Notes: generated by a model from the letters alone, not told the origin. Positions 8,192-53,229 are shown, counted from the first letter of the stretch. The stretch is DNA of 64,000 nt from Escherichia coli (GCF_003991155.1 NZ_CP031294.1), one strand, 5' to 3'. A program made the numbers and translations.

Positions 8192-8265
8192 TGATGGAAA
8201 ACTCCTTTTTCCGTTAATTCTACGCATTCATTGCGCTAATAGTAAGTATATACTTACTAATTGAG

Positions 8266-13654: not shown

Positions 13655-15229
13655 TCACTCGTTCTCTTGAGTAGATGAGTCCCCATTCCCTCGGGGTTGA
13701 TCTTGCCCGCTTTCTTGGGCTGCACCACGATCATAAGTAAGTACTGACTTATTTTCAAGGGTATTTAGATCATTTTTTGGAGGAAAATTCAAGAGATCTT
13801 TATCAAATTCCTTTTTCATCGCCTCAGTAATGTTCGGGAAAATCTTCTCAATAAGCATTTCCATCTGGTGACGACGTACAGAGTCCGGTGCCTGAAGTAA
13901 TGACAGTTTCTCGGCAACAGAAAATTCATCAGTAAGGCCACGAATATCGAAACTTTCTGGATATGCAATTAAAGAGTGGTCTTCGTCCAGATCTACCCCC
14001 ATCCATTTCGCAACCAGTAGCATGATTTGGCGTTCAGCCCTTTCCAGACGCTCTGCTTTTGTGACAAGCAAGCTATTTACACGCTGGAAGTCATACATTT
14101 TTGCGGCACCAGATGAATTATCGATTCCCTGTGCGTTGTCCTGCTTCGTTCGCTCACCAGCTACACCAACTGAATGGTAGATTTCGTTAATCACCGTCTT
14201 AATCGTAGTGATGATCATCTGAGCTTGTTTCGGGTCTGGTGACAGATAAAACGGCTGGTTTCCACCTTCAGAATCGTAGGTGAAGACTCGCTTTGTGCCC
14301 ATTTCAAGCACTTTAGTGTGGTTTTCATCACCAGGTAAAAGCGACTGTACCGGTATAGCCAACTGGCTAAATGTCTGATCCTGAATAATGGCATCAAGGT
14401 TTGACAGATAGTTTGCAACCGCACGATCAAGATAAGCGATATCATCGATCAACGATGGGCTGAAATACGGTGATTCACTTTCTCCAATACAATCAACAGG
14501 AAACACAGGAACTACGCCGAGATTATGCTCACCGCTATCCTCTAAAATAACTTTTGCCTGACGGCGACCTGCTCCACCAGCGCCCTTCTTCACTTCCTCA
14601 CGGAACAGATACCACTCGTTTTGTGTCCACAGACGATAACGTTGGTATTCCTGACCTGTAGAAGTAAAAGGATCTGCGTCATCACGAGCGACTTCCACAA
14701 TTAACGCCCACAACATATTCCCGTCGTCGTCCCATGCCACATCCAGCATTTGCTGAGGTGAAATCCAGTAGGCGTAGGCGCGAGCATCTTTCTTTTTCTC
14801 GTCAGCTACTGACTCAACATCACCACTCATCGTGCTATCGACAACAACCCATATGCGACCGTAAATAGACGACTGCAAATCAATAGCGGCCATAAATGAG
14901 TCAATAGAGGCATTCTGGCGAGTCGCACGTTTCCAGAAATTGCGGATCTGCTCTGGTGCCTCTTCGATATTTCTATGAATGTCTTCTTTAAAGAGATATT
15001 TGTTGATGAGGTTTACCACCTCACGAGTGTGGTTGAAGCGATAAGCACGTTCAACTCGCTCCTTAAACTCCTGATCTCCCTCTTTAAAGTAACGAAAGAT
15101 ATTGTCTGTAAACCAACCACGCCCGCCAGCGTAAGTGCTGGCGAGGAAGTCCCAATGTTCTTTTTTCTTTTCGTATTCCGGGTGGCGTCGCGCCACCAGA
15201 TCCTTAATTTGTTTGTCGTTCAATTCCAT
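13655..15229 (-). CDS. portal protein
   Basis: 524-aa ORF directly downstream of large terminase; size and acidic C-terminus typical of portal proteins. Confidence 0.7.
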   Translation of the reverse strand: MELNDKQIKDLVARRHPEYEKKKEHWDFLASTYAGGRGWFTDNIFRYFKEGDQEFKERVERAYRFNHTREVVNLINKYLFKEDIHRNIEEAPEQIRNFWKRATRQNASIDSFMAAIDLQSSIYGRIWVVVDSTMSGDVESVADEKKKDARAYAYWISPQQMLDVAWDDDGNMLWALIVEVARDDADPFTSTGQEYQRYRLWTQNEWYLFREEVKKGAGGAGRRQAKVILEDSGEHNLGVVPVFPVDCIGESESPYFSPSLIDDIAYLDRAVANYLSNLDAIIQDQTFSQLAIPVQSLLPGDENHTKVLEMGTKRVFTYDSEGGNQPFYLSPDPKQAQMIITTIKTVINEIYHSVGVAGERTKQDNAQGIDNSSGAAKMYDFQRVNSLLVTKAERLERAERQIMLLVAKWMGVDLDEDHSLIAYPESFDIRGLTDEFSVAEKLSLLQAPDSVRRHQMEMLIEKIFPNITEAMKKEFDKDLLNFPPKNDLNTLENKSVLTYDRGAAQESGQDQPRGNGDSSTQENE

Positions 15230-15255: not shown

Positions 15256-16512
15256 CTATCGAGAACCACCAAGAATAACACGGTTTTTGACTGGATACCT
15301 ACGATGTACTGGATAGCCCAATGCGTCTGCACTATGCTCAATGCCACCTGTCTTATCCATATCTCGTGTTCCAGGCTTGTAGATGACTTTTTCCAGTGAA
15401 TCAATCAAATGCTTGCACTTCGGATCGATATACAGCCGGATATCTCCAGATGCGGTCATCAGCATTCGGTTAACAGCATTAACACGATCCGCAATTGGCG
15501 GGTGCTTTTTCGAATAATCGACACGTAAGAATCCCTTCTCTTTGAATATGTCGACGTCAGACTCCCCGCGAGCATGTTGGCGATAAGCACCTGCCGGATC
15601 TGGAAATACCGTTATCTGTGATTTCCAGCGCCAGAAGCGTCTCTCAAGCTCATCACAAACCTCTGCCGTGTTAGAGGAAAAGAGCACCAATTCATCAATT
15701 GCCCATAGCTCACCATTTGGCTGAGGTTGCAAAATTACTGAAGACATCGGGTCAATGTTGAAGTCCTGCCCTACCCATATAGGCAACCGAGGGTTGAACT
15801 GAAGCGGTTTTACATGCACGTTACGATCGAACGGGTAGTAAACGCGCCCGGACATGTTCTCAAAGCTCGCCAGGTACTCCTGAGCGAACGATTTCGGGTC
15901 CATATCGTTCTTAGCAGCTTCAATTTCCGCCGTAGGTACAAACGGAGAATCGGCAGTTACAAACTGCCAGCTCTTCCACTGTCCCTTTCTTTGCAGCTCT
16001 ACGTTCTGGCCTATAGTCCACAGTTTGTGAAATTCCGAGAAGCCTTTTGGCGTACCAATGATCAGTGCACCGCCGCGTGTCGATGAAAGAGTAGGTCGTA
16101 ACACCTTGTACCAGGTGTCAGCCTTCATATCCTGAAATTCATCAAGCACTACAAAATGCAACGCTACGCCGCGCAGAGTGTCAGGCTTATCAGCACCTTT
16201 GAGGGCGATCTCCGAACCGTTCTTCAACACGATTGTCATCGTGGTGTCGTTCTTTTTCCTAACCCACTTACGAGGCAGAACTTCCTGTAGATCGTCCCAC
16301 AAAATCTGGCGAGCCATCTGGTAAGTAGGAGCGACATACCAGACTCTTTGCTTTTTTTCCTTTGCCGCCGCACGAATAATAGTGGAGATCGACAACCGGG
16401 ATTTTCCCCAGCGTCGACCAGCACAAACAACTTTAAATCGATGCGGAGACTGGAAGACTTTCATCTGTCCAGAATGCAGTTGCACAAGACTGAGCGAGGA
16501 CGGGATTGCCAT
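15256..16512 (-). CDS. terminase large subunit
   Basis: Walker A CAGRRWGKS, Walker B VVLDEF, C-terminal nuclease-like domain; 418 aa. Confidence 0.9.
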   Translation of the reverse strand: MAIPSSLSLVQLHSGQMKVFQSPHRFKVVCAGRRWGKSRLSISTIIRAAAKEKKQRVWYVAPTYQMARQILWDDLQEVLPRKWVRKKNDTTMTIVLKNGSEIALKGADKPDTLRGVALHFVVLDEFQDMKADTWYKVLRPTLSSTRGGALIIGTPKGFSEFHKLWTIGQNVELQRKGQWKSWQFVTADSPFVPTAEIEAAKNDMDPKSFAQEYLASFENMSGRVYYPFDRNVHVKPLQFNPRLPIWVGQDFNIDPMSSVILQPQPNGELWAIDELVLFSSNTAEVCDELERRFWRWKSQITVFPDPAGAYRQHARGESDVDIFKEKGFLRVDYSKKHPPIADRVNAVNRMLMTASGDIRLYIDPKCKHLIDSLEKVIYKPGTRDMDKTGGIEHSADALGYPVHRRYPVKNRVILGGSR

Positions 16513-17144
16513 TATTCGTCCTCCCCTTCACTTCCATCATCTGTCGCATCAAATTCGCTTAGAGCTTCTTCTTCCAACGTCTCAAGCAATTCGTCATCGA
16601 TGATTTCAGGCTCGTCGTCTTCCTGACGTAATTTCGCCACCTGGGAAGGCGTAAGCTCACCAAATACCAGGTTCGGAATTTCTTCCTCGTCATTTTCCGC
16701 ATGATCCATGCCCAATGCTTTGGACGAAACTTCAAAGCATTTTGCAAGGGTATTACTGGCTCTCTGTAAGCTCTTGAGAGAATCCTCAATCGCCCCTAAA
16801 GGCTTACCCTCACGTTTGGCCGTAGTGACTTCGACCATCACCATCTGCCCCAACGCATACGCCCAGCCGTCATAACGTGTACGACGTTCTTCTATCTTTT
16901 CCGCACGGGCTTTAGCGCGAAGCTCTGCGTCAGATTTAAGAGACTCACGAACCATCTTCCCAACAGAGTCCGCGCCTTTCTCTAATCCTCGCTTTTTGAA
17001 ATGTCTGGAGAGTGTTTCACGACGAATGCCGTACTCTTCCTCCAGCTTTGAGAGTGTATATTCGCCTGACGTCCATTTGGCTTCAGCTTCGGCCCACTCC
17101 GCTGGTGTCAGGCGAGTTTTTACCTCGTCTTTTTCGACCGTCAT
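16512..17144 (-). CDS. terminase small subunit (candidate)
   Basis: 210 aa, N-terminal HTH-like region, acidic C-terminus, 1-bp overlap with TerL start. Confidence 0.6.
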   Translation of the reverse strand: MTVEKDEVKTRLTPAEWAEAEAKWTSGEYTLSKLEEEYGIRRETLSRHFKKRGLEKGADSVGKMVRESLKSDAELRAKARAEKIEERRTRYDGWAYALGQMVMVEVTTAKREGKPLGAIEDSLKSLQRASNTLAKCFEVSSKALGMDHAENDEEEIPNLVFGELTPSQVAKLRQEDDEPEIIDDELLETLEEEALSEFDATDDGSEGEDE

Positions 17145-17256
17145 AGATCCCTCTAAAACACACAGAGCGCGTCCATGCGCTCTAAAACAACTTGTTTACT
17201 GCATCTGCTAACCAACTTGTTTTCTGGGGTGTTTAATTAGGTCTGGCATGTCTTAC

Positions 17257-17316
17257 GAAGCCTGCTTCCGTATATATTTAATAAGTTACTTATTATTTAT
17301 ATATACAGATGCAGGT
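17257..17316. promoter_or_regulatory. hairpin-flanked AT-rich intergenic element (copy 1) upstream of terminase operon
   Basis: Arms cctgcttccgtatatat / atatatacagatgcagg flank palindrome aataagttacttatt; near-identical copy at 47551-47610. Confidence 0.5.
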
Positions 17317-17339
17317 CTTTAAATAAGCTCCCAGACCGA

Positions 17340-17606
17340 TTACATCACCAGTAACTTCGCTTTGGCTCGACCTAAAGTGGTTAACCCAAGAGTCCGGCGG
17401 TGATAGCGATTGTCACTGCGTTGGCGCGTATGCCCTTTCTCCACCAGCCCCTTTTTTATCAGAGCGCGAATTGAGAACTGGATACTTTGCTTGGTTGTCT
17501 TGTACGGCAAAACTTCAAGCAATTCGTCCAGGTCAAGTAGATGACCTCGCTCATAACCGAGATTGAGCGTTTTGATGATGTCCTTTTGTTTGTCGGTTAA
17601 CGTCAT
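17340..17606 (-). CDS. small DNA-binding protein (winged-helix-like), hypothetical
   Basis: 88 aa, basic, helix-turn-helix-like segment; last gene of ParB/ATPase operon. Confidence 0.35.
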   Translation of the reverse strand: MTLTDKQKDIIKTLNLGYERGHLLDLDELLEVLPYKTTKQSIQFSIRALIKKGLVEKGHTRQRSDNRYHRRTLGLTTLGRAKAKLLVM

Positions 17607-17615
17607 GGCAAATCC

Positions 17616-18506
17616 TTATGCCGGTAAAGCAATTTCTAACGGTTTATCCAAAGGTTGTTTGTCGAATGCCAGCAGTGGCAGCGTGTCAGGCAGTCGACGG
17701 CCAAAGTCAGGGTTTCGGTACACACCATACAACGGAGACGTAAAGCTCAGGTTGTGAATGTCCTTGAGCAGCTTCACAATGCTGGCCTCGTCCACCAGAC
17801 TGTCGGCAATGTCCTGAATCGTCGTGCCACGATTCCGCCCAGCTTTTGCCAGGGAACTGTTCTTATGGTAGTCCGCCACCAAATCGCGCAGCGCACGGCG
17901 ACGACGAGACTCGCTCATAGCGAACAACTCTTTGACGATCGCCTCGTTATCACCCGGGTCGGAGCGGAAATGGCGCTGGAACACACGCAGTGCACTTTCA
18001 TAGCTCTTCGGTCGCTCAGGGCGGATGAACTTAAACCCTGCTTTCATGGCGAAGGGATTGTATTTGCTCATCGAGGACTGGATCTCAATGATTGGCCGGT
18101 CATGCATCCTGCTAACCAGGTTAATCATTCTATAAGAGACGCCTACGCCACGATACTGAGTATCCACAACTGAGCGACTGATCACCGCAAAGTTGTTATT
18201 CACGTACCGACCCCAGTACTGGTTAGCCACGGTGGTATTAGTGGTTGGTTTCAACTTAGGAAACATGCGGTGGCGAGGTGCCAACAGTAGTTTCGGGTAA
18301 GCCATAACCACGACGCCCACCAGACGGTCATCAAGTTCGCAGCGATAGTAAGTTGGCGCGAAAGGTTTGCCGTCTGTTTTGTAGTGAAGCGACTTAAGAG
18401 CGTGCCAGTCCTCTACAGTTCCCTTTGTAACAGTCATTCGCTCCAGAAAGTCCAGATGACGCGGAAACTCTTCAGGGCGGTAGCGTTTAATGATGATGTC
18501 CGTCAT
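17616..18506 (-). CDS. hypothetical protein with possible GNAT-like acyltransferase motif
   Basis: 296 aa; segment VVDTQYRGVGVSYRMINLV resembles GNAT motif A (Q/R-x-x-G-x-G/A); weak. Confidence 0.3.
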   Translation of the reverse strand: MTDIIIKRYRPEEFPRHLDFLERMTVTKGTVEDWHALKSLHYKTDGKPFAPTYYRCELDDRLVGVVVMAYPKLLLAPRHRMFPKLKPTTNTTVANQYWGRYVNNNFAVISRSVVDTQYRGVGVSYRMINLVSRMHDRPIIEIQSSMSKYNPFAMKAGFKFIRPERPKSYESALRVFQRHFRSDPGDNEAIVKELFAMSESRRRRALRDLVADYHKNSSLAKAGRNRGTTIQDIADSLVDEASIVKLLKDIHNLSFTSPLYGVYRNPDFGRRLPDTLPLLAFDKQPLDKPLEIALPA

Positions 18507-19168
18507 GAATGGACCTCATCATGACTACCATTGTGATATTCCACCTTCACGCGTTCTTTGTAGTGCTTGGTGATCTGCATATCAGGGCGCAGCGCGTTCT
18601 TCAGGTCTTCGTGAGTCGTCGCCACCATTACCGTCGCACCAACCTTTCGAGCGGCACGCTGGAGGTTAGACGCCACAACCTGAGCGGTTACACGGTCGAG
18701 AACAGCGCCGAACTCGTCAGCAGCCCATACTTTAGCGCCTGACTCAATCAGTTTGGCAATCTTGAGACGATATTTCTGGCCGTCTGACATTTCAGAAGGC
18801 TTGCGAACAAACAGATATGCATCGTTCAGACCAGCCATAGATAACAACCCAAGCGCATCACTGGTCGTTTTGCCCAACTGATCGATGACGTTAACCTCAT
18901 TATCGAAGGTAAAATCATCGATGGAGGCTACAGACAGCCCTTCATCCTTCATCTGTCGTTGCAACTCGCGCAGCACAACGGATTTGCCGGAACCGGATTG
19001 GCCGGTGATGTACACCACATCGCCCTGCTTCACTTCCAGCTCCAGATTGTCGTAAAGCGTCCACTCTTTTTCGTCCAGGCCAAGCCCGAACGACTCAGCG
19101 ATTTCCAACGTGCGCGTGGTTTTATTTACGCGTGTCTGAAACGATACGTTGATGATGTATTTGCTCAT
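18503..19168 (-). CDS. ABC-type ATPase (stand-alone nucleotide-binding domain)
   Basis: Walker A GQSGSGKS, signature-like SDGQKYRL, Walker B VWAADEF, H-loop ATTHE. Confidence 0.6.
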   Translation of the reverse strand: MSKYIINVSFQTRVNKTTRTLEIAESFGLGLDEKEWTLYDNLELEVKQGDVVYITGQSGSGKSVVLRELQRQMKDEGLSVASIDDFTFDNEVNVIDQLGKTTSDALGLLSMAGLNDAYLFVRKPSEMSDGQKYRLKIAKLIESGAKVWAADEFGAVLDRVTAQVVASNLQRAARKVGATVMVATTHEDLKNALRPDMQITKHYKERVKVEYHNGSHDEVHS

Positions 19169-19866
19169 GCAGCCATCTCCCCGGAAGAGATCTTCTCCGC
19201 ATATGCCACAAATGCGTCTACCCCGCTTTCTCCCGTCATTTCTTCCATATGGGCAAGCAAATCACCAACAACAATGGCAGAGCCAGCAGGGAGCGTTTTA
19301 AAGCCCAATACGTCGACAACACGTACTTCTTCCGCTGCAACTTCACGACTGATCTCGGTGTGTTCATCCTTCTGTCGTTTAGTTTCTTCGCCAAGATCGA
19401 TAACTAGCGAGTCGGTGTCCATTTCTTCTGTCATACTGCCAACGAGAACATTCAACTCACGCTCTTCAAAGCCGAAAACCTCGATATCGTCCAGAACAAG
19501 CGACTCAAGCTCTTTCTGTAGCTTAATTGCATCGTAATCAATGCTGGCAAGTCGGTTATCTTCAAGGCGCTTCGCACGAACCTCGTCATCACTGAGATCA
19601 TCGCGAACAATAACCGGTACGCGCTCAAGTCCAGCAAAAATTGCAGCCTCACGGCGGCCGTGGCCAGTAATAATTACGTCGTTCTTATCGACCGTAATTG
19701 GCTGGTCAAATCCGCGCTTTTTAATGGCTGCGGCTAGATCTCGGATCTGCTGTTCATCATGCTTTTTGGCATTCATCTCATAGGGAATAAGATCTGCCGG
19801 GTCGCGATATACGATTTCAAACTTTTTGGTCATTACATACGCTCCTTGTAGTAGTCGACCAGCCAC
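19165..19866 (-). CDS. ParB-like nuclease domain protein
   Basis: N-terminal ParB/Srx-type motif ITGHGRREAA; acidic C-terminus. Confidence 0.55.
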   Translation of the reverse strand: MAGRLLQGAYVMTKKFEIVYRDPADLIPYEMNAKKHDEQQIRDLAAAIKKRGFDQPITVDKNDVIITGHGRREAAIFAGLERVPVIVRDDLSDDEVRAKRLEDNRLASIDYDAIKLQKELESLVLDDIEVFGFEERELNVLVGSMTEEMDTDSLVIDLGEETKRQKDEHTEISREVAAEEVRVVDVLGFKTLPAGSAIVVGDLLAHMEEMTGESGVDAFVAYAEKISSGEMAA

Positions 19867-20531
19867 ACCAGAGCCTCACCAGCGTTCTCCATTTCATTAC
19901 CGGTGTTAATAGCCTGCTCTTTGATGATGTTTTTTATGGTTTCTGCAACACGATCTGACGCATCGAAAGTTACTTTGAAGCGCATGGTCTGATGTTCCGC
20001 ACCCACACGTTCGGTTTTCTCTCGTTTGTCGGTATCGACAGGCTCATCACTACCACGAGACAACGCCTCCAGTGCTTCAAGGTCGATTGCCGCCTCTTTT
20101 GCTAAAACCATCGAGATTTCGTCGTCATACGGAGCGATTTCAGACAGTTGATAGTCAAGTTCTGACTGAATTTCTTCAATGAAGCGTTGCAATGCGATTT
20201 GGTCGTCTTCACCGTATCGCTCGTTGTCCACCAGTGACATCTGTTTAGCTACGACATCGCTAATTTTGCCCACAGAAAGCACCGGAACCGTTGAAATTCC
20301 TTGCTCAATAGCAGCACGCCAGCGATGTTCGCCGCCGAGGATTTCAAAAAATCCATCTTCAAGTTCACGAGCCAAAATTGGCTTAAAAAAGCCCAATTTT
20401 TCGATAGAACCTTTCAGTTTTTCAAAATTCTGCGCACCAACCGAATTGGTGTTCCAGGTATTCGGGCGAAGGTTGGCAACATCAACCTGCAAAATCGTGA
20501 TTTTTACATCCATTTTATTGCTACAATCCAC
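19833..20531 (-). CDS. ParB-like nuclease domain protein
   Basis: N-terminal ParB-type motif LGGEHRWRAA. Confidence 0.55.
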   Translation of the reverse strand: MDCSNKMDVKITILQVDVANLRPNTWNTNSVGAQNFEKLKGSIEKLGFFKPILARELEDGFFEILGGEHRWRAAIEQGISTVPVLSVGKISDVVAKQMSLVDNERYGEDDQIALQRFIEEIQSELDYQLSEIAPYDDEISMVLAKEAAIDLEALEALSRGSDEPVDTDKREKTERVGAEHQTMRFKVTFDASDRVAETIKNIIKEQAINTGNEMENAGEALVWLVDYYKERM

Positions 20532-20595
20532 TAAGTAATCACTTACTTATTATAATAGCCAAATAACATACAAAAGGCACTAAGGAAAGAGGTTT

Positions 20596-22155
20596 ATGAC
20601 TGTTCGGATTGTATCTAACGCAGTAAATGCGCTTATTTCTGGCGCAGATGACAAGGTAAAGCAACTGGTGCAGCAAATGTTGAGCTACGAAGTCGAGACT
20701 GGCGACTGGAAGGGCACAAGCACGATGTTCAACTGGAGTAAAAACTCGTTCCCTGCTGGCTTTGCCAAGCCTGTAGCGGCGAACTTGAACAAGGCGGGCA
20801 TCAAATGTGTTCATATCCGCAAAGACAAAGCCCCGGCGCTTGGTAAACCAAATCCTGCGGTTAACCCATTCCCATACAATCCTGATTATGCGTATCAGGA
20901 TCAGACTGTGGAAACACTGGTTCGAGAGGGAATGATGATTGCGCAGATCGCTACTGGTGGCGGGAAATCTAACGTTGCCTGCAAAGCAGCTGCACGTATC
21001 GGTCGAATGACATTATTTTTAACAACCCGCTCTGTTCTGATGTTTCAAATGGCCGAAAACTTCCAGAGATCCATCGACTACCGCGCCGAAAATGGCGAAC
21101 CGTGGTTAAAAGACCAAAAGGTTGGAGTCATTGGCTCGGGTGAGTTCCAGGTATCACGACATATCAACGTCGCTACAGTTCAAACTCTTGCAAGTTTCCT
21201 CGAAGAACCACCACGCGATGCAACACCAGATAAGAAAAGCTACCACCTCAAACGTCGGGAGTTGGTGAAACGCTTCCTTTCAAGTGTCTCTCTTCTTATT
21301 CTGGAAGAGGCGCATGAGTCTTCAGGCTCAAATTTCTATGACATCGCCAGATTATGTGTGAACGCAGACTATCGTCTGGCGCTTACAGCCACGCCGTTCA
21401 TGAAGGATTCGACGGAAGCCAACATGCGCCTGATGGCGGTGGCCGGGCGAATTGAAATTAAAGTCACAGAAAAGTACCTGATTGATCGAGGCATTCTGGC
21501 AAAGCCGTACTTCCTTTATCATAAAGTTGCCTACAAGCCAGACGAGGCCAGAATCAAGGCCGAACTTGCCAACAAACACCTCAATTTTAGAGTTGGTATG
21601 AGCACCGCCTACCAAAAGGCTTATCAGTTGGGGATCGTGTATAATTTGGGACGTAACGAGGCCATAGTGCGCGAGGCATTGCTTTATAAGCAACATTCAC
21701 TCAACTGCATGACTCTGGTTCGTCTTAAACGCCACGGGCAAATCCTGATGGAGATGATGAAGGAGTCAGGTCTTAAAGTTGATTTCATCTATGGGGAATC
21801 TAACCAGACGACAAGGCAAGCAAAGCTGAATAGTTTAGCGTCTGGTGAAATAGATGTTTTAATAGGCTCGACTATTCTGGATGTTGGTGTTGATGTGCCA
21901 AGCGTTGGTGCGGTCATTCTTGCTGGTGGTGGGAAAGCAGAAGTTGAAATGAGACAGCGTGTCGGTCGTGGCTTACGAGCCAAAAAAAATCAGGCAAACG
22001 TGTGTTTTATCACCGATTTCATTGACATTAGCAACAAATACCTGTTGTCTCACTCTTATGAGCGAAAACACATCATCGACACCACACCTGGCTTTGCAGA
22101 AGGTGTATTGCCTATTGATGGAGCATTCGATTTTGGAGTTCTGAAACGAGATTAG
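20596..22155 (+). CDS. SF2 DNA/RNA helicase
   Basis: Walker A ATGGGKS, motif II LEEAH, motif III TATP, motif VI QRVGRGLR. Confidence 0.8.
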   Translation: MTVRIVSNAVNALISGADDKVKQLVQQMLSYEVETGDWKGTSTMFNWSKNSFPAGFAKPVAANLNKAGIKCVHIRKDKAPALGKPNPAVNPFPYNPDYAYQDQTVETLVREGMMIAQIATGGGKSNVACKAAARIGRMTLFLTTRSVLMFQMAENFQRSIDYRAENGEPWLKDQKVGVIGSGEFQVSRHINVATVQTLASFLEEPPRDATPDKKSYHLKRRELVKRFLSSVSLLILEEAHESSGSNFYDIARLCVNADYRLALTATPFMKDSTEANMRLMAVAGRIEIKVTEKYLIDRGILAKPYFLYHKVAYKPDEARIKAELANKHLNFRVGMSTAYQKAYQLGIVYNLGRNEAIVREALLYKQHSLNCMTLVRLKRHGQILMEMMKESGLKVDFIYGESNQTTRQAKLNSLASGEIDVLIGSTILDVGVDVPSVGAVILAGGGKAEVEMRQRVGRGLRAKKNQANVCFITDFIDISNKYLLSHSYERKHIIDTTPGFAEGVLPIDGAFDFGVLKRD

Positions 22156-31731: not shown

Positions 31732-33765
31732 TTACTTAACCTGGTGGCCTGGTTTAGCACCAGCATCCGGGCTTAACAGGAAGATATCTTTCCCGCCGGG
31801 GCCAGCAGCCATCACCATGCCTTCGGAGATACCGAAGCGCATTTTACGCGGAGCCAGGTTAGCCACCATAATGGTGTGACGACCAATCAGTGCCTGTGGG
31901 TCTGGATAAGCAGAACGGATGCCTGAGAAGACATTACGCTTTTCACCACCGAGATCCAGTGTCAGACGCAGCAGTTTGTCAGAACCTTCGACAAACTCCG
32001 CGTTTTCAATCAGCGCCACACGCAGGTCAACTTTGGCGAAGTCGTCAAAGGTGATGGTTTCCTGAATCGGGTCGTCAGCCAGTGGGCCAGTTACCGGTGC
32101 AGCTGTGGCTTTCACTTCTTCTTTGGATGCTTCCACCAGTGCTTCCACCTGTTTCATATCGATACGGTTATACAATGCCTTGAACGGATTCACTTTATGG
32201 CCCAGCAGCGGTTGCTGGATACCATCCCAGGTCAGTTCTGTATTCAGGAATGCTTCTGCACGTTCAGTCAGTTTCGGCAGTACCGGTTTCAAGTACGTCA
32301 TCAGCACGCGGAACAGGTTAATGCCCATAGAGCAAATCGCCTGCAGATCGGCATCGCGTCCTTCCTGCTTCGCCACCACCCACGGAGCCTGTTCATCGAC
32401 ATATCGGTTAGCCAGGTCAGCCAATGCCATGATTTCACGGATAGCTTTACCAAATTCGCGGCTTTCCCATGCTTCGCCAATCACTTCAGCGGCATCAGTA
32501 AAGGTTTTGTACAGTTGCGGGTCAGCCAGTTCGCTTGCCAGCACGCCGTCAAAACGCTTGTTGATAAAGCCTGCATTACGGGAGGCCAGGTTAACCACTT
32601 TGTTCACGATATCGGCATTCACGCGCTGAACGAAATCCTCCAGGTTGAGATCGATATCATCAATGCGCGAAGAGAGTTTCGCAGTGTAGTAGTAACGCAG
32701 GCTGTCGGCGTCAAAATGATTCAGCCAGGTGCTGGCTTTAATAAAGGTGCCGCGAGACTTGGACATCTTCGCGCCGTTCACCGTCACATAGCCGTGAACA
32801 AACAGGTTGGTCGGCTTGCGGAAGTTGCTGCCTTCCAGCATGGCAGGCCAGAACAGGCTGTGGAAGTAAACAATATCTTTACCGATGAAGTGGTACAGCT
32901 CGGCTGTGGAGTCTTTCTTCCAGTATTCATCGAAGCTGGTGGTATCGCCGCGCTTGTCGCACAGATTCTTGAAGGAACCCATGTAGCCAATCGGCGCGTC
33001 CAGCCAGACGTAGAAATATTTGCCCGGCGCGTTCGGAATTTCAAAACCGAAGTAAGGCGCATCGCGGGAGATATCCCACTGTTGCAGGCCGGATTCAAAC
33101 CACTCCTGCATTTTGTTCGCCACCTGCTCCTGCAACGCACCGCTGCGGGTCCATGCCTGCAACATTTCGCTGAAAGAGGGCAGATCAAAGAAGAAGTGTT
33201 CGGAATCACGCATTACCGGGGTAGCGCCAGAAACCACCGATTTCGGCTCGATCAATTCAGTCGGGCTATATGTTGCGCCGCAGACTTCACAGTTATCGCC
33301 GTATTGATCTGGCGCTTTACATTTCGGGCAGGTGCCTTTCACAAAACGATCCGGCAGGAACATGCCTTTTTCCGGGTCGTACAACTGAGAGATAGTGCGG
33401 TTTTTAATAAAACCGTTCTCTTTCAGGCGAGTATAGATAAGCTCAGACAGCTGGCGGTTCTCTTCGCTGTGCGTCGAGTGATAGTTGTCATAGCTGATGT
33501 TAAAGCCTGCGAAATCAGTCTGGTGTTCCTGACTCATTTCGCCAATCATCTGCTCCGGTGTGATACCAAGCTGCTGTGCTTTCAGCATGATCGGCGTACC
33601 GTGGGCATCGTCGGCACAGATGAAATTAACCTCGTGGCCGCGCATTCGCTGGTAACGAACCCAGACATCAGCCTGGATGTGCTCCAGCATATGGCCGAGG
33701 TGGATTGAGCCGTTAGCGTACGGCAGCGCGCACGTCACCAGAATTTTCTTCGCGACTTGGGTCAT
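31732..33765 (-). CDS. metG: methionyl-tRNA synthetase
   Basis: 677-aa product [29 protein letters not shown]... recalled as essentially E. coli MetG (HIGH motif, KMSKS, C-terminal tRNA-binding domain); start at ATG 33763-33765, ORF-track upstream extension rejected. Confidence 0.97.
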
Positions 33766-33922
33766 AGTAGGCATTACTTCTTTGTAGTGAAAAGGGGCTT
33801 GATAGTAACAAAATGGCCTTATGTCTGCCATGTGATAACAGCATTTCTCATAAATGATTAAATGTCGTAGCTGGAGTACACTACAAGGCGACAATTGCGC
33901 AAATTAAAATAAAGGAGACGGG

Positions 33923-35023
33923 ATGAGCGAGTCCAAATCGCCGGATGCCCTGAGAGCAATGGTAGCCGGTACGCTGGCTAATTTTCAGCACCCAACCCTG
34001 AAACACAACCTGACTACGCTTAAAGCGTTACACCATGTTGCGTTGATGGATGACACACTGCATGTCGAACTAATCATGCCTTTCGTGTGGAATAAGCCTT
34101 TTGAAGACCTGAAAGAGCAATGTAGTGGTGATCTGCTCCGTATCACTGGCGCAAAGGCTATTGACTGGAAGCTGTCGTACAACATTGCCACGCTTAAGCG
34201 CGTCAAAAACCAACCAGGCATTAATGGCGTTAAGAACATTATCGCCGTCAGCTCAGGCAAGGGCGGCGTGGGTAAATCCTCCACGGCGGTAAACCTGGCA
34301 CTGGCGTTGGCTGCTGAAGGTGCGAAAGTTGGTATTTTGGATGCCGATATCTATGGTCCATCAATTCCAACCATGCTGGGCGCGGAAAACCAACGTCCAA
34401 CCTCACCTGACGGTACTCACATGGCACCTATCATGTCTCATGGCCTGGCAACCAACTCTATTGGTTATCTGGTCACCGACGACAATGCAATGGTGTGGCG
34501 TGGACCGATGGCCAGCAAGGCGCTGATGCAGATGTTGCAGGAAACTCTATGGCCTGATCTGGACTATCTCGTTCTCGATATGCCGCCGGGCACTGGTGAT
34601 ATTCAGTTGACGCTGGCGCAGAACATTCCTGTAACTGGTGCGGTTGTGGTAACTACGCCGCAAGACATCGCGCTGATCGATGCGAAGAAAGGCATTGTGA
34701 TGTTCGAAAAAGTCGAAGTGCCGGTACTGGGTATCGTCGAAAACATGAGTGTGCATATTTGCAGTAACTGCGGTCATCACGAGCCAATTTTTGGCACCGG
34801 TGGCGCACAGAAACTGGCCGAGAAATACAACACGCAGTTGTTAGGCCAAATGCCACTTCATATCTCTCTTCGTGAAGATCTGGATAACGGAACACCAACC
34901 GTTATTAGTCGTCCAGATAGCGAATTTACGGCTATTTATCGTGACCTCGCAGATCGCGTTGCCGCCCAAATGTATTGGCAAGGTGAAGTAATACCTGGCG
35001 AAATCGCATTCCGCGCAGTGTGA
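33923..35023 (+). CDS. apbC: Fe-S cluster carrier ATPase ApbC/Mrp
   Basis: 366 aa; P-loop SSGKGGVGKSSTAVNLALALA; CxxC motif ICSNCGHHEP; divergent from metG as in Escherichia chromosome. Confidence 0.95.
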   Translation: MSESKSPDALRAMVAGTLANFQHPTLKHNLTTLKALHHVALMDDTLHVELIMPFVWNKPFEDLKEQCSGDLLRITGAKAIDWKLSYNIATLKRVKNQPGINGVKNIIAVSSGKGGVGKSSTAVNLALALAAEGAKVGILDADIYGPSIPTMLGAENQRPTSPDGTHMAPIMSHGLATNSIGYLVTDDNAMVWRGPMASKALMQMLQETLWPDLDYLVLDMPPGTGDIQLTLAQNIPVTGAVVVTTPQDIALIDAKKGIVMFEKVEVPVLGIVENMSVHICSNCGHHEPIFGTGGAQKLAEKYNTQLLGQMPLHISLREDLDNGTPTVISRPDSEFTAIYRDLADRVAAQMYWQGEVIPGEIAFRAV

Positions 35024-36151: not shown

Positions 36152-37710
36152 ATGAAAATGACAAGTATTCAACAACGTGCAGAGCTTCATCGCCAGATCT
36201 GGCAAATTGCTAACGATGTCAGGGGTTCAGTCGATGGATGGGATTTTAAGCAGTACGTTTTGGGCGCGCTTTTTTACCGTTTTATCAGCGAAAATTTTTC
36301 CAGTTATATTGAAGCCGGTGATGACAGTATCTGTTATGCGAAACTGGATGACAGCGTAATTACTGATGACATTAAAGACGATGCCATCAAAACTAAAGGC
36401 TACTTCATCTACCCCAGTCAGCTTTTCTGCAACGTAGCTGCGAAAGCAAATACTAATGACAGACTGAATGCAGATTTAAACAGCATCTTCGTTGCTATCG
36501 AAAGTTCTGCTTACGGTTATCCTTCAGAAGCTGACATCAAAGGTTTGTTTGCTGATTTCGATACCACCAGTAACCGCCTGGGTAACACCGTTAAAGATAA
36601 AAATGCCCGCTTGGCTGCGGTTCTGAAAGGGGTTGAAGGGCTAAAACTTGGTGACTTCCATGAACATCAGATTGACCTGTTCGGTGACGCCTATGAGTTC
36701 CTGATTTCTAACTATGCGGCGAATGCCGGTAAGTCCGGCGGCGAGTTCTTTACACCGCAGCACGTCTCTAAGCTGATTGCACAACTGGCTATGCACGGGC
36801 AGACCCACGTTAACAAAATCTACGACCCGGCAGCAGGCTCCGGTTCGCTGTTGTTGCAGGCGAAAAAACAGTTTGATGACCATATCATCGAAGAAGGTTT
36901 TTTTGGTCAGGAAATCAACCATACGACCTATAACCTGGCGCGTATGAACATGTTTTTGCACAACATCAACTACGACAAGTTTGATATCAAGCTGGGTAAT
37001 ACACTGACTGAGCCGCACTTCAGAGATGAAAAACCGTTTGATGCCATCGTTTCTAACCCGCCGTATTCGGTGAAATGGATTGGCAGCGATGACCCGACGC
37101 TGATTAACGATGAACGTTTTGCCCCGGCTGGCGTTCTGGCCCCCAAATCCAAAGCTGACTTTGCGTTTGTATTACATGCGCTGAACTATCTTTCGGCCAA
37201 AGGTCGCGCTGCGATTGTCTGCTTCCCAGGCATTTTTTACCGTGGCGGCGCGGAGCAGAAAATCCGTCAGTATCTGGTCGACAATAACTATGTCGAAACC
37301 GTGATTTCACTGGCACCGAATCTGTTCTTTGGCACCACTATTGCCGTCAATATTCTGGTGCTGTCTAAACATAAAACGGATACCAAAGTTCAGTTTATTG
37401 ATGCCAGCGAACTGTTCAAAAAAGAGACTAACAACAACATTCTGACCGATGCTCATATCGAACAGATTATGCAGGTATTTGCCAGCAAGGAAGATGTTGC
37501 TCATCTGGCGAAATCTGTTGCGTTTGAGACTGTTGTCGCGAATGACTATAACCTGTCGGTGAGCAGCTATGTGGAAGCGAAAGATACTCGCGAAATTATC
37601 GATATCGCTGAGCTGAATGCTGAGCTGAAAACCACGGTCAGCAAAATCGACCAGTTGCGTAAAGATATTGATGCGATTGTTGCTGAGATTGAAGGTAGCG
37701 AGGTACAGGC

Positions 37711-37714
<4 letters not shown>
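36152..37714 (+). CDS. hsdM: Type I restriction-modification methyltransferase subunit (Type IC, EcoR124 family)
   Basis: 520 aa; N-terminus [26 protein letters not shown] recalled as EcoR124-family HsdM; AdoMet motif [10 protein letters not shown]; NPPY catalytic motif. Confidence 0.95.
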
Positions 37715-38970
<1,256 letters not shown>

Positions 38971-39091
38971 TTGACCATTGCTACCGACCGGATCACCTTA
39001 ACATCCGGTCTATATAGAGACTATTTTTTACACGCCGGAAGTCGCCCTTAAAGCCCTTCCGGCCCTTGCCAGACGGCACAAAGGATGCGCT

Positions 39092-42000
39092 ATGACTCAT
39101 CAGACACACACCATTGCTGAATCCAATAACTTTATCGTTCTTGATAAGTACATCAAAGCCGAGCAAACAGGCGACAGCTACCAGAGCGAATCGGACCTGG
39201 AACGTGAACTGATTCAGGATCTGCGGAATCAGGGCTATGAATTTATTTCCGTAAAATCTCAGTCGGCGATGCTGGCCAACGTTCGGGAACAGCTTCAGAG
39301 CCTCAATGGTGTGATGTTTAATGACAGCGAGTGGCGGCGCTTCACGGAGCAGTATCTGGACAACCCCAGCGATGGTATTCTGGATAAAACCCGTAAAATC
39401 CATATCGACTATATCTGCGACTTTATTTTTGACGACGGGCGACTTGAGAACATCTATTTGATAGATAAAAAGAATCTCATGCGCAATAAGGTGCAGATTA
39501 TCCAGCAGTTTGAACAGACGGGTTCTCATGCTAACCGTTATGACGTCACGATCCTGGTTAATGGTTTACCGCTGGTGCAAATCGAACTAAAAAAACGCGG
39601 GGTGGCGATTCGTGAGGCTTTCAACCAGATACATCGTTACAGTAAAGAGAGTTTTAACAGCGAAAATTCCCTGTTTAAGTATCTGCAACTGTTTGTCATT
39701 TCTAACGGCACCGATACCCGTTATTTTGCCAACACGACAAAGCGCGATAAAAACAGTTTTGACTTCACCATGAATTGGGCGAAATCAGACAACACGCTGA
39801 TTAAAGACCTCAAAGACTTTACCGCTACCTTTTTCCAGAAACATACTCTGCTGAATGTTCTGGTGAACTACAGCGTTTTTGACAGTAGTCAGACGCTACT
39901 GGTGATGCGACCGTACCAGATTGCCGCCACCGAGCGCATTCTGTGGAAAATTAAGAGTTCCTTTACAGCGAAGAACTGGTCAAAACCGGAAAGCGGTGGG
40001 TATATCTGGCATACTACCGGTTCTGGTAAAACCCTCACCAGCTTTAAAGCCGCGCGTCTGGCAACAGAGCTGGACTTTATTGATAAAGTCTTCTTTGTGG
40101 TCGACAGGAAAGACCTCGATTACCAGACCATGAAGGAATATCAGCGTTTTTCGCCAGACAGCGTCAACGGCTCGGAAAATACCGCAGGCCTTAAACGAAA
40201 TCTGGATAAGGACGATAACAAAATTATCGTCACTACTATTCAGAAACTCAATAACCTGATGAAAGCAGAAAGCGACCTGCCTGTATATAATCAGCAAGTG
40301 GTGTTTATATTTGATGAATGCCACCGCAGCCAGTTTGGAGAAGCGCAGAAAAACCTGAAGAAGAAATTCAAACGCTATTATCAGTTTGGTTTTACCGGCA
40401 CCCCTATTTTCCCGGAAAACGCTTTAGGCTCAGAAACGACCGCCAGCGTATTTGGTCGTGAATTGCATTCGTATGTAATTACCGATGCGATTCGTGATGA
40501 AAAAGTGCTCAAATTCAAGGTGGACTACAACGATGTGCGGCCACAGTTTAAATCTTTAGAGACAGAAACCGACGAGAAAAAACTGAGTGCGGCTGAAAAT
40601 CAGCAGGCATTTCTTCATCCCATGCGTATACAGGAAATTACGCAATATATTCTGAATAACTTCCGCCAGAAGACCCACCGTACTTTCCCAGGTTCCAAAG
40701 GCTTTAATGCCATGCTGGCAGTGAGTAGCGTGGATGCCGCGAAAGCCTATTACGCGACGTTTAAACGGTTACAAGAGGAAGCAGCTAATAAATCGGCTAC
40801 CTATAAACCGCTGCGTGTTGCAACAATCTTCTCCTTTGCCGCCAATGAAGAACAAAATGCCATTGGTGAAATTTCCGATGAAACTTTTGATACCAGCGCA
40901 ATGGACAGCAGTGCTAAAGAGTTTCTTGACGCTGCAATTCGTGAGTATAACAGCTATTTTAAAACTAACTTCAGCACCGACAGTAACGGTTTTCAGAACT
41001 ACTATCGTGATTTAGCCCAACGGGTTAAAAATCAGGATATCGATCTGTTAATTGTCGTTGGGATGTTTTTAACCGGCTTCGACGCTCCAACATTGAACAC
41101 GCTATTCGTCGATAAAAACTTGCGTTTTCACGGCCTGATGCAGGCATTCTCCCGTACCAACCGCATTTATGACGCTACTAAAACCTTCGGTAACATCGTC
41201 ACTTTTCGGGATCTGGAACGCTCAACCATTGATGCCATAACGCTGTTTGGTGATAAAAATACTAAAAATGTGGTGTTAGAAAAGAGTTATGCTGAGTATA
41301 TGGAAGGCTTTACAGATGCTGCCACTGGTGAAGCTAAACGCGGCTTTATGGCAGTAGTTTCAGAACTGGAACAACGGTTCCCTGACCCTGCCAGTATTGA
41401 AAGTGAAAAACAGAAGAAAGACTTCGTAAAACTGTTTGGTGAATACCTGCGTGCCGAGAACATCCTGCAAAACTATGATGAATTTGCCACGCTGAAAGCC
41501 CTGCAACAAATCGATCTTAGCGATCCTGTTGCGGTAGAAAAATTCAAAGCAGAACATTATGTGGATGATGAAAAGTTCGCTGAATTGCAAACAATTCGTC
41601 TCCCTGCTGAACGCAAGATTCAGGATTATCGTTCTGCCTATAACGATATTCGCGACTGGCAGCGCCGTGAGAAAGAAGCTGAGAAAAAAGAGAAATCAAC
41701 CACTGACTGGGATGACGTAGTTTTTGAGGTCGATTTGCTGAAGTCTCAGGAAATAAACCTGGATTATATCCTTGGACTGATTTTCGAACACAACAGACAA
41801 AATAAAGGCAAGGGCGAAATGATCGAAGAGGTCAAACGCTTAATTCGTTCAAGCCTGGGGAACCGGGCGAAAGAGGGCCTGGTGGTCGATTTTATTCAGC
41901 AAACGAACCTGGATGATTTACCAGACAAAGCCAGTATCATTGAGGCATTCTTTACGTTTGCTCAACGCGAACAGCAACGTGAAGCAGAAGCATTGATAAA

Positions 42001-42208
42001 AGAAGAAAATCTCAATGAAGAGGCGGCGAAACGCTATATTCGCACGTCTTTAAAACGCGAATACGCCACCGAAAATGGCACAGAATTAAACGAGACATTA
42101 CCAAAACTTAGTCCGTTAAACCCGCAATATAAAACGAAAAAACAGACCGTTTTCCAGAAAATCGTCACGTTTATTGAAAAGTTCAAAGGAGTAGGTGGGC
42201 AGATATAG
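39092..42208 (+). CDS. hsdR: Type I R-M restriction endonuclease/translocase subunit
   Basis: 1038 aa, same length as EcoR124I HsdR; SF2 helicase motifs (GSGKT, FDECH), N-terminal nuclease region. Confidence 0.95.
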
Positions 42209-45892: not shown

Positions 45893-46037
45893 GTGGACTC
45901 CATCCAGTGTCAGAAAGAGTTGCGGCTGGCGATTGCCAGCCGCCTTTCTCGTTCCATCCTGGAACTGTGTCTTACCGACACATTGTCATCCTGACGCTGA
46001 TAAGATACATGATTTAAAATGATAGGTAAACACTTAC

Positions 46038-46682
46038 TTACCACTTGTTATAAACAAAACCAATATCTTTCTTGTGAGGCATATCTGCTGCTGAAAAAGC
46101 TGCGATCTTCGCGAGTCGATCACATATTTCATTTTCACGATGCCCGGCGTGACCTTTAACCCACTTCCAGCGAACATTATGTCGACTTGCGGCCTCATCC
46201 AGACGTTTCCACAGATCAACATTCTTTACCGGTTTTTTATCAGAAGTCATCCATCCATTACGTTTCCACCATTTCATCCACTGTGTCATGCCGTTTTTCA
46301 GATACTGGCTATCAGAGTACAAAATAACGTTGCATGGATATTTCAAACGCTCCAGCCCGATAAGTGCGCCCATCATCTCCATGCGGTTATTGGTGGTGCT
46401 ATGAAAACCATCTGAGAACTCGCGTTCCTCACCACGATACTGGAGAACGATACCGTAACCGCCCGGGCCACCCGGATTTTTAAGGCAAGAGCCATCACTA
46501 AAGATTTTCACGGTTTTGAGCTGGGGATTGAACTCTACGACAGGCGTTGTGGGATTGGTGCGGGGAGAATTTTTGTTTTTGGCTTTTTTGCGAGTTTTTG
46601 CTTGCGATCGGGCTGGTGTCTTCGTCGTCATATAAACTCCTGAATCAAGCGCCGCGCCGATTTTTTCCTCGCGCGTGCGCAC
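46038..46682 (-). CDS. rnhA: ribonuclease H (RNase HI family)
   Basis: C-terminal region [12 protein letters not shown]...[16 protein letters not shown]...[26 protein letters not shown]...[16 protein letters not shown] matches RNase HI; basic N-terminal extension. Confidence 0.85.
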
Positions 46683-50423: not shown

Positions 50424-51068
50424 CTAATGAACGGTCACTCGGCCACAGAACCGGTTTTCTATCTTTTCTACAGCGTTATCTAGCATTCTCATCACTGATC
50501 TGGCTCTTGCTTCAACCGTGCGATATCGGTTGGAAACGACGAAGGTTTGCAGATCTCCCCTTTGCGGATGCAGGTGAATTTTTGTCAGTTCCCCGCACAT
50601 CAACGCATCAATACGAGCGACATACAGACGGTCTAATGATGCTCGTTGTGATCGCAAGTAATCTCGCTCTGAGAGAGCGACTCCCGGGCGTAAGCCAGCA
50701 ATGGCGTTAAAGTTTGAAATAGCAGTTTTGTGGCAAAACTTTTCGATATCGAGGGCTAACTCAATACACCGATCTTCATTTGTATGGCCGACCAAATCCA
50801 ACGTGTAGGCCATAACATCAGCAGGTGTGCGATCGATAACAAAGCCTTCAACACCACGCGTAAGTAGCTCTATATGCTTTGCTATTTCCATTTGAATCTG
50901 AAGCCGCTCATATAGAGGCATAGACTCACCTACTCGAACACCGAGGCGGCTCATCAAACTTCCGACACCAGCATCCACGTAAGGGATTCCGTAATGTTTG
51001 TCGATATATTTAGCCAGGGTTGTTTTCCCACTGCCCTGAGCACCAGTGATCCCAATCCGGTAATCCAT
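50424..51068 (-). CDS. deoxynucleoside monophosphate kinase (P-loop)
   Basis: Walker A GAQGSGKTT; FVIDRTP motif; coupled to DHFR gene. Confidence 0.65.
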   Translation of the reverse strand: MDYRIGITGAQGSGKTTLAKYIDKHYGIPYVDAGVGSLMSRLGVRVGESMPLYERLQIQMEIAKHIELLTRGVEGFVIDRTPADVMAYTLDLVGHTNEDRCIELALDIEKFCHKTAISNFNAIAGLRPGVALSERDYLRSQRASLDRLYVARIDALMCGELTKIHLHPQRGDLQTFVVSNRYRTVEARARSVMRMLDNAVEKIENRFCGRVTVH

Positions 51069-53059: not shown

Positions 53060-53229
53060 AAAAACCTCACAAAGATAAGTAATTACTTATTCATCGTGTG
53101 AGTTTACATTCATTGAGAGAACAAGACCAGACAGATAAAAAAATGGTGGCCATAGGCCACCAAAACGAATAGTCATTCCAGAGTTTTATTACGCATGTTA
53201 AATATACACAGATAGATAACTACCTACAA

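Follow-up and report, generated by a model that had tools for sequence, protein, structure and literature searches.

We analyzed a 64,000-nucleotide stretch of Escherichia coli DNA (GCF_003991155.1, NZ_CP031294.1; hereafter the window) and within it a block of five consecutive minus-strand genes. These encode two ParB-like proteins (ParB1 and ParB2), an ATP-binding cassette (ABC) ATPase, a protein with the GNAT fold and a small winged helix-turn-helix (wHTH) protein. The ATPase and the GNAT protein together represent, as two separate chains, an enzyme that is widespread in viruses as an ABC–GNAT fusion. We consider it likely that the five genes encode one DNA-directed ParB–ABC–GNAT complex rather than a partition system. 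The more specific reading that this complex modifies DNA covalently is a serious possibility, which we place somewhat short of probable. In its most detailed form, the module would be an unrecognized class of ParB-loaded, ATP-dependent ABC–GNAT 'DNA acyltransferase' that acyl-marks the bases of replicated phage DNA before packaging, a proposal that is speculative and, taken as a whole, rather doubtful.

The module region shares 99.1% identity with Escherichia phage Cyrano, ~98.5% with further SSU5-like elements of E. coli, 85% with Salmonella phage SSU5 and ~81% with Klebsiella phage-plasmids; on these identities the window is assigned to an SSU5-type phage-plasmid. Such elements are common in clinical Enterobacteriaceae, and some of their records are named for resistance genes (KPC, OXA-48). 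Public records label the five genes 'ParB protein', 'ABC transporter', 'MK0520 protein' and 'DNA modification methylase', names that are uninformative or misleading. The sole 'ParB' annotations of SSU5-type elements are routinely taken to mean partition, and the ATPase an 'ABC transporter'; we regard both readings as wrong. The sequence is thus already known and annotated, the component folds are known, and a ParB-fold nucleoside triphosphatase (NTPase) that aids a DNA-modifying enzyme is an emerging principle. What is new is the effector, made of ABC and GNAT, together with the duplicated ParB and the fusions to polymerase; literature searches found no description of the module or of the fused ABC–GNAT family.

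Two halves of one ABC–GNAT enzyme

The ATPase matched the Pfam model ABC_tran and carries a Walker A motif (GQSGSGKS), a signature (MSDGQ), a Walker B motif (AADEF) and an H-loop (TTHED), each invariant in 73 homologs. Among the NCBIfam models, only generic ABC nucleotide-binding domains matched, and transporter models all fell far below their cut-offs. No permease partner was found, as the five-gene operon encodes no membrane protein and the homologs are fused to GNAT, ParB or family-B DNA polymerase (PolB) instead. Because a permease is lacking and the fusion partners are DNA proteins, the module is not a transporter. A word-indexed homolog search with the ATPase yielded only near-identical enterobacterial proteins.

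For the GNAT protein, Pfam and PDB sequence searches gave nothing significant, and the fold was recognized through structure prediction only. It is interrupted by a ~90-residue helical insertion (~residues 165–255). Motif A (RGVGVS), which fits the acyl-CoA pyrophosphate-binding pattern R/Q-x-x-G-x-G/A/S, and motif B (YNPFAMKAGF) are kept in the family, in fused and stand-alone forms, and the protein also has a family-specific LHYK motif. In structural comparison, the GNAT domain ranked closest to enzymes that acetylate proteins or small molecules.

A profile search with the GNAT family returned 956 cluster representatives, the best 150 of which were sorted by domain architecture. These 150 included 54 ABC–GNAT fusions, 38 stand-alone GNAT proteins, 38 fragments and smaller numbers of ABC–GNAT–X (6), X–ABC–GNAT (5), ParB–ABC–GNAT (4) and GNAT–X (3) proteins. 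The window ATPase aligned to the N-terminal halves of fused proteins with phmmer E-values of 1e-40 to 1e-64, while Foldseek aligned the whole GNAT protein to the C-terminal half of ABC ATPase or ABC-ATPase/acetyltransferase proteins of ~470–497 amino acids. A single family, phrog_11143, matched both window proteins. The gene order in the window, ABC then GNAT, is also the domain order in the fusions, which we call the COG2401/MK0520 type after their source annotations.

Natural ParB–ABC–GNAT single polypeptides were identified as well (P0314, P0342, P0344 and P0345), together with fusions to PolB (P0324 and P0295), to a DnaA-like domain (P0323) and to a TFIIB-like domain (P0274). Every identified fusion partner is a DNA-binding or replication module.

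The P0324-type viral protein is 1260 amino acids long (L010, L011 and L012, 8001–11783) and joins PolB exonuclease and polymerase domains to ABC–GNAT; it was found in many metagenomes (35 index blocks).

ParB1, ParB2 and the conserved operon

Both ParB-like proteins contain ParB_N (PF02195; Pfam E = 6.8e-13 for ParB1 and 3e-8 for ParB2) and their alignments are confined to the nucleotide-binding domains of Spo0J, ParB, Noc and KorB. Their PDB profile matches end at ~residue 100–134, and no helix-turn-helix (HTH) DNA-binding domain was detected in either protein by Pfam, which gave only ParB_N, or by PDB profiles. The AlphaFold model of ParB1 (predicted local distance difference test score, 82.5) has a confident ParB/Srx NTP-binding N-domain at ~residues 1–118, followed by a helical middle that is poorly ordered, a linker that is acidic and disordered and, again modelled with confidence, a helical hairpin at the C terminus. 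When the two families were compared, hhalign gave a probability of 99.1% over 194 columns, and on this alignment ParB1 and ParB2 are paralogs over their whole length. Invariant motifs are GGEHR and DNxRYGxDD in the ParB1 family and NxKxH, GHGR and DN in the ParB2 family, with GGEHR and GHGR representing the GxxR-type nucleotide-binding loop of the ParB/Srx superfamily. The window proteins read GGEHRWRA and DNERYG (ParB1) and GHGRREA and EDNR (ParB2), which are related to the canonical CTPase motifs but are not canonical.

ParB2 ties the pair to the enzyme. It matched phrog_930 (E = 1e-112), phrog_620 (2e-39), the ParB-methyltransferase family phrog_498 (5e-32) and the N-domain of PADLOC MTase_II (2.7e-17), and its best cross-family matches are the N-domains of ParB–DNA methyltransferases. 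Its profile also matched the ParB that adjoins the ABC gene in Streptococcus phage phiNIH1.1 (E = 7e-37). Among PHROG families, phrog_620 and phrog_498 come closest to the ParB domain of the triple fusions, and ParB2 is much nearer to both than ParB1 is. Therefore, the window's ParB2–ABC–GNAT set is the counterpart of the single-chain form, and ParB1 is an extra paralog. The four single-chain proteins physically join a ParB-fold domain to the enzyme, and the architecture of ParB1 and ParB2 is that of an NTPase with no detectable DNA-binding domain of its own.

Several unrelated phages have a ParB2-like gene and then ABC–GNAT directly before the terminase: the Mu-F-type prophage L013, Gordonia phage Sisko (genes 1-2-3-4), Leptospira phage LE4 (gp14-gp15) and Streptococcus pyogenes phage phiNIH1.1 (ParB2-like gene and ABC). 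Rhodococcus phage Jace has the same pair (gp85-gp86), with terS ~3 kb downstream. Elsewhere the fused enzyme is part of replication modules (L008, L010, L179 and P12024S), near DnaB, primase, PolB, RFC-like, RecA/RadA and Mre11-like genes. The homolog in the Mu-like phage phiE255, gp29, follows the tail-fibre genes, at the site where Mu carries mom, and stands beside a formyltransferase. Additionally, the module is neighboured by an aspartate decarboxylase in Jace and by a methyltransferase-like gene (annotated 'tRNA-methyltransferase') in Sisko, DNA methylases flank the triple fusion P0342, and DNA methylase genes are annotated beside the ABC gene in Streptococcus prophages. The formyltransferase, the aspartate decarboxylase and the methyltransferases suggest that tailoring chemistry goes with the module, and an ASCH domain is a further neighbour of this type.

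In phiNIH1.1 (L183, 4983–6052), the ABC gene p25 is followed by an unannotated 89-amino-acid open reading frame (ORF) with GNAT motif A (YQGVGLG), and a frameshift, a split or faulty annotation may affect the ABC–GNAT gene of this phage. Directly after its ParB–ABC–GNAT genes comes a gene for a protein with an ASCH domain (L183, 6113–6490), and another lies in the window at 62613–63257 on the minus strand. ASCH/PUA-like domains can bind or hydrolyse modified bases, so the domain may be functionally linked to the module. We considered the ASCH gene as a co-distributed 'reader' and rejected it: the gene occurs in members from enterobacteria, its match in one Nickievirus is only weak, and its distribution does not follow that of the module.

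In the window, the five ORFs occupy 17340–20513 (Table 1), with the start codons adopted from the annotation of the near-identical phages Cyrano and PhiR41_1. The ParB1/ParB2 junction is a 1-nt overlap (TAATG), the ParB2/ABC and ABC/GNAT junctions are both 4-nt overlaps (ATGA), and the GNAT and wHTH genes are separated by a 9-nt spacer that holds an AAGGA ribosome-binding site; on the strength of these junctions we take the five genes to be translationally coupled. The module is followed by the TerS-like gene, TerL, the portal gene and then structural genes, all on the minus strand. A first-pass annotation of this DNA had placed five coupled genes between a divergent helicase and the terminase, with which ORFs, junctions and flanks agree, and its description of the proteins was right in all five parts (two ParB_N proteins, ABC_tran, GNAT fold and wHTH). 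While its gene identities hold, it had overlooked that the ATPase and the GNAT protein are one split enzyme, that ParB–ABC–GNAT single polypeptides exist and that the block is present, unexplained, in public phage records.

Table 1. The module, its neighbours and associated DNA elements; positions count from the first nucleotide of the window.
Feature	Position	Strand	Remark
TerL	15256-16512	-	After TerS; downstream of the module in all related loci with enough flank
TerS-like gene	16512-17144	-	phrog_867; downstream of the module after the gap
wHTH–TerS gap	17145-17339	.	195 nt
MarR/PadR-like wHTH	17340-17606	-	88 aa
GNAT-like protein	17616-18506	-	296 aa
ABC-type ATPase	18503-19168	-	221 aa
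ParB2	19165-19833	-	Longest ORF reaches 19866
ParB1	19833-20513	-	Longest ORF reaches 20531 from GTG
Divergent promoter region	20514-20595	.	82 nt between helicase and ParB1
UvsW/SF2-type helicase	20596-22155	+	Divergent; directly upstream of the module in all related loci with enough flank
Palindrome sites	1736-1751, 8241-8258, 13734-13751, 20532-20549, 46023-46040, 53076-53091		And 17286-17296

The locus was compared across ~80 diverse IMG/VR contigs, two bacterial contigs, and Rhizobium and Pseudomonas phages. An initial scan gave only loci of 78–100% identity, and the viral-contig set was built by divergent-first alignment; across its contigs GNAT identity is 44–100%, with phage nickie as the reference. 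The order helicase(-)/ParB1-ParB2-ABC-GNAT-wHTH-gap-TerS-TerL-portal has no exception among the loci with enough flank, and only small ORFs intrude, between ParB2, ABC and GNAT. This arrangement, which is the same down to ~44% GNAT identity, is far from chance, and throughout this phage lineage the packaging operon opens with the five genes as an unvarying block. Members of the lineage that carry the module include the Nickievirus phages, which are predicted to be virulent and have long terminal repeats (PMC11256456).

The 88-residue protein that closes the block matches phrog_900 and directly follows the GNAT gene in related loci; its position is conserved and its sequence is fast-evolving. 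A profile of 29 homologs matched the MarR-type protein ST1710 (2EB7) over the recognition helix and wing (E = 1.6e-6), with weak matches to MarR, PadR, LexA, Lrs14 and AspA. The protein may be a site-specific adaptor or a regulator.

In the divergent promoter region, a TATAAT-like hexamer is followed by the palindrome TAAGTAAGTGATTACT (20532–20549), ~20–40 nt upstream of the ParB1 start. In the 64 kb there are just two copies of the exact 11-mer ATAATAAGTAA, at 20543–20553 upstream of ParB1 and at 17286–17296 upstream of TerS; it belongs to a palindrome family, TAAGTMA-N4-TKACT. Of 52 related loci, 31 have this palindrome upstream of ParB1 and 25 have a member of the family in the wHTH–TerS gap. 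Palindrome density in the two intergenic regions of related phages is 3.3 and 1.9 per kb, as against 0.04 per kb in coding DNA (~50–80x). Across the window there are about six sites, mostly just upstream of minus-strand gene blocks, and 10 matches where 0.92 would be expected. TAAGTMA-N4-TKACT, which distantly related phages keep at equivalent intergenic positions, is probably a lineage-wide operator or promoter, and this common element suggests that the module is co-regulated with structural and packaging genes.

The wHTH–TerS gap holds a 55-nt AT-rich palindrome (17261–17315) and a GC hairpin with a T-run (17163–17184); it probably combines a terminator with a promoter/operator that serves the terminase operon. 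Related loci usually have a gap before TerS as well (median 176 nt, range -52 to 1211). The public records of SSU5 and Cyrano both break 62 nt past the wHTH gene, inside the AT-rich palindrome, and the Nican01 record begins at TerL by convention. We considered the gap as the site of the physical genome ends and rejected it, as only 4 of 45 truncated contigs end there, which is not above chance.

Possible functions of the module

The ABC and GNAT proteins form one enzyme, and from the fusions ParB2 and, by paralogy, ParB1 are its physical partners. If the module modifies DNA, the ParB N-domains would form a nucleotide-gated DNA-loading or sliding module, while the C-terminal helical hairpins probably hold the ParBs as a dimer, possibly a ParB1–ParB2 heterodimer. 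Because the ParBs have no detectable HTH of their own, the wHTH protein may supply site recognition, for example at the TAAGTMA-N4-TKACT palindromes, as AspA does for the HTH-less ParB of pNOB8. ATP-driven closure of an ABC dimer would then engage the DNA and present the target to the GNAT site, which would take acyl from an acyl-CoA-type donor; the most plausible acceptor is a base in replicated phage DNA. ParB–methyltransferase fusions, the ParB-dependent 5mYOX thymine dioxygenases and DpdB–DpdA follow a matching logic and are precedents for the loading step. The mark may be an N-acetyl or another acyl or aminoacyl group and, laid before packaging, would protect against restriction. A DNA-modification module was among the options of the first-pass annotation, and the evidence favours it over the other two, partition and exclusion, with the acceptor itself remaining putative.

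Several points weigh against covalent DNA modification. A GNAT fold does not disclose its substrate, and in the structural comparison phage Mu Mom is no closer than protein or small-molecule acetyltransferases. Literature searches found no report of a modified base in SSU5-type DNA. The motifs of ParB1 and ParB2 depart from the canonical GERRxRA/ENxxR of CTP-dependent clamps, and their use of CTP is only putative; likewise, contact between the ParBs and ABC–GNAT is read by analogy from the fusions. The wHTH protein shows little conservation, and to connect it with the palindromes is guesswork. The palindromes occur genome-wide and so may simply be promoter/operator elements. In phiNIH1.1 the GNAT part looks disrupted, which suggests that the module is dispensable there. 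Finally, the recurrent site beside the terminase fits a packaging role equally.

Such a role would make the module a packaging accessory, in which a ParB/Srx nuclease-type pair and an ATPase aid the terminase, as HNH proteins beside terminases do, for example in recognition or cleavage of the packaging site or in clearing branched concatemers. The module lies immediately upstream of TerS/TerL throughout the lineage and upstream of the terminase in unrelated phages too, a palindromic promoter/operator motif is common to the module, the terminase operon and other minus-strand blocks, and ParB/Srx proteins can nick DNA (cited in PMC12839542). However, many fused homologs are far from any terminase, in replication modules or fused to PolB, DnaA-like or TFIIB-like domains, and the intact, conserved acyl-CoA-binding GNAT protein has no obvious part in DNA cleavage. 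No homology to TerS, TerL or HNH was found for any of the five proteins; against the packaging families (TerS, TerL, portal and HNH) they gave no significant match, the ATPase reaching marginal P-loop similarity only (E >0.002). Nor are contig ends enriched in the wHTH–TerS gap (4/45). Homology of all five proteins to known packaging or partition proteins had been named in advance as the finding that would refute the first-pass reading, and none of them matches a characterized one. On balance we think a packaging accessory unlikely.

Alternatively, the ParBs might bring ABC–GNAT to DNA in order to acetylate a DNA-bound protein. Possible targets are nucleoid proteins of the host, polymerase or restriction complexes, and phage proteins of replication or packaging; this would let the phage take over the host or turn from replication to packaging. 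The closest structural neighbours of the GNAT domain are the N-acetyltransferases Naa10/50/60 and RimI, and the PolB, DnaA-like and TFIIB-like fusions could mirror acetylation of those machines. These structural matches, however, are generic to the GNAT fold, ParB2-type domains are otherwise joined to DNA methyltransferases, which act on DNA itself, and no candidate protein substrate co-varies with the module. A DNA-tethered protein acetyltransferase seems to us quite unlikely.

Improbable, in our view, is an acyltransferase for RNA or tRNA, that is, an ATP-dependent GNAT enzyme like TmcA/NAT10, the writers of N4-acetylcytidine (ac4C). An architecture of ATPase, GNAT and an extra helical element does resemble TmcA, an ASCH protein stands beside the phiNIH1.1 module and a 'tRNA-methyltransferase' gene beside that of Sisko, and in nickie tRNA genes lie near the module. 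Yet the fusion partners are all DNA-binding or DNA-replication proteins, the ATPase is of the ABC type, unlike the helicase type of TmcA, and the ASCH gene shows no co-distribution with the module across the lineage.

The first-pass annotation had held that the ParBs are not part of a classic ParA/ParB pair, and indeed there is no ParA partner in the operon. Its option of a non-canonical plasmid partition or segregation module could point to two ParB_N proteins in a phage-plasmid, but is contradicted by where the module occurs: in predicted virulent Nickievirus phages with long terminal repeats, in Gram-positive prophages, in lytic actinophages and in a Leptospira phage. No ParA is encoded in or next to the operon, while Cyrano has a separately annotated parA with a small downstream gene, located elsewhere and outside the window; moreover, the ParBs have no detectable HTH and the ParB domain is fused to enzymes in relatives. 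As for clustered parS-type repeats, there is one palindrome ahead of ParB1 and a related element ahead of TerS; with about six sites across the window, other copies precede other gene blocks, a spread more like that of promoters or operators. Partition is largely refuted by the distribution of the module, and we give it hardly any credence.

We also considered the Mrp/MinD/ParA-like ATPase at 33923–35023 (plus strand, 366 amino acids) as a ParA partner and rejected it, as it is Mrp/MinD-like, lies 14 kb away, has no adjacent ParB and within the SSU5 group is confined to E. coli members. Outside the group it is found in a few unrelated phages, and in Cyrano it is labelled 'MinD'.

The module might instead serve defence, superinfection exclusion or anti-defence without modifying DNA. 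ABC ATPases and ParB-like domains are common in defence systems, and there are weak PADLOC matches to the mad3, mad8 and PtuA ATPases. Those matches amount to generic P-loop similarity, though, no system architecture fits, and the module is an invariant core block with conserved synteny, unlike a variable accessory island. A search of PADLOC-DB 2.0 gave no defined system, only the MTase_II ParB domain and the P-loops of mad3, mad8 and PtuA, and nothing for the GNAT protein. The earlier statement that no recognized defence architecture is present thus agrees with a similarity confined to generic ATPases and ParB-methylases, and its suggestion of an exclusion system found no support. We judge such a role improbable as well.

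Whichever reaction it performs, ParB, ABC and GNAT make up one unit, whether fused, split or polymerase-attached, at the replication/packaging junction of many unrelated phages, and ParB–ABC–GNAT defines a large uncharacterized phage system. Should the DNA-modification reading be true, ABC-ATPase-driven acyl transfer would join the repertoire of phage DNA modification, and the emerging rule that ParB-fold NTPases serve as loaders for DNA-modifying enzymes would be extended. The machine would then be widespread in tailed phages of Proteobacteria, Firmicutes, Actinobacteria and Spirochaetes, and possibly in archaeal viruses.

Three other regions of the window drew our attention. At 36152–42208 (plus strand) lie three large genes of 520, 419 and 1038 amino acids; the first is DNA-methyltransferase-like (phrog_6380) and the second and third match the unknown PHROGs 2668 and 3830. 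At the equivalent position Cyrano seems, from coordinate mapping, to have other genes (DUF4942, Ead/Ea22-like), and the region may be a restriction-modification or defence cassette in a variable part of the element. The 699-amino-acid protein at 31732–33831 (minus strand) corresponds by coordinate mapping to one labelled 'Methionyl-tRNA synthetase MetRS' in Cyrano, a label that looks doubtful because only PHROGs of unknown function matched (phrog_8598). Lastly, a small P-loop protein of 214 amino acids (50424–51068, minus strand) in a nucleotide-metabolism cluster is labelled 'ABC transporter ATP-binding protein' in Cyrano; because its PHROG matches are only weak and clamp-loader/thymidylate-kinase-like, this protein is probably a nucleotide kinase rather than one of the ABC type.

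Relation to known systems

Two known enzymes combine the GNAT fold with nucleic acid. Mom of phage Mu (PDB 8BV8) has a GNAT fold and modifies adenine in the phage's own DNA late in infection; it has no specific sequence relationship to the window protein and works without an ABC ATPase or a ParB. In TmcA/NAT10, an ATPase module is combined with a GNAT domain and ATP hydrolysis is needed to acetylate a nucleic-acid base. These enzymes differ from the module in their helicase-like ATPase and RNA substrate, and they are not among the top structural matches of the GNAT protein.

Partition and plasmid-control systems share some traits with the module. The small wHTH protein of the window could be a site-specific adaptor, like AspA in the AspA–ParB–ParA system of pNOB8, and its palindromic sites are spread over several operons, as KorB operators are. 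In contrast to ParABS, KorB–KorA and pNOB8, the module has no ParA, its ParBs lack a detectable HTH, it occurs in non-plasmid phages and it is enzyme-fused in relatives.

The fused ABC-ATPase/acetyltransferases (COG2401/MK0520, phrog_11143) are homologs of the window pair over both halves and in the same order, whereas the window enzyme is split into two overlapping genes and its GNAT half has a longer helical insertion. The ParB–DNA methyltransferase fusions (phrog_498; PADLOC MTase_II PDLC03229) have the same type of ParB N-domain as ParB2 (NxK/RxH … GHxR … DN) and likewise tie it to a nucleic-acid-modifying effector. The window effector, however, is an ABC ATPase with a GNAT protein and not an S-adenosylmethionine-dependent methyltransferase, the proteins are separate, and there are an extra ParB paralog and a wHTH protein.

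Two systems pair a ParB-fold protein with a base-modifying enzyme. DpdB is a ParB-like ATPase that supports the DNA transglycosylase DpdA in 7-deazaguanine DNA modification, and its ATPase is stimulated by the enzyme–DNA complex (PMC10164549). Similar to the arrangement proposed for the window, a ParB-fold NTPase there supports a base-modifying enzyme; DpdB differs in its DGQQR motif and C-terminal domain, its partner is a transglycosylase, and the setting is a cellular restriction-modification-like system. Phage ParBs with NTP-binding and C-terminal domains and without a DNA-binding domain are required for the clade E 5mYOX thymine dioxygenases, and 5mYOX–ParB clusters are often near terminase genes (bioRxiv 10.1101/2025.08.14.668559). 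Whereas that system employs an iron/2-oxoglutarate dioxygenase and one ParB, and DNA modification is demonstrated there and putative for the module, its ParBs have the same architecture as ParB1 and ParB2 of the window.

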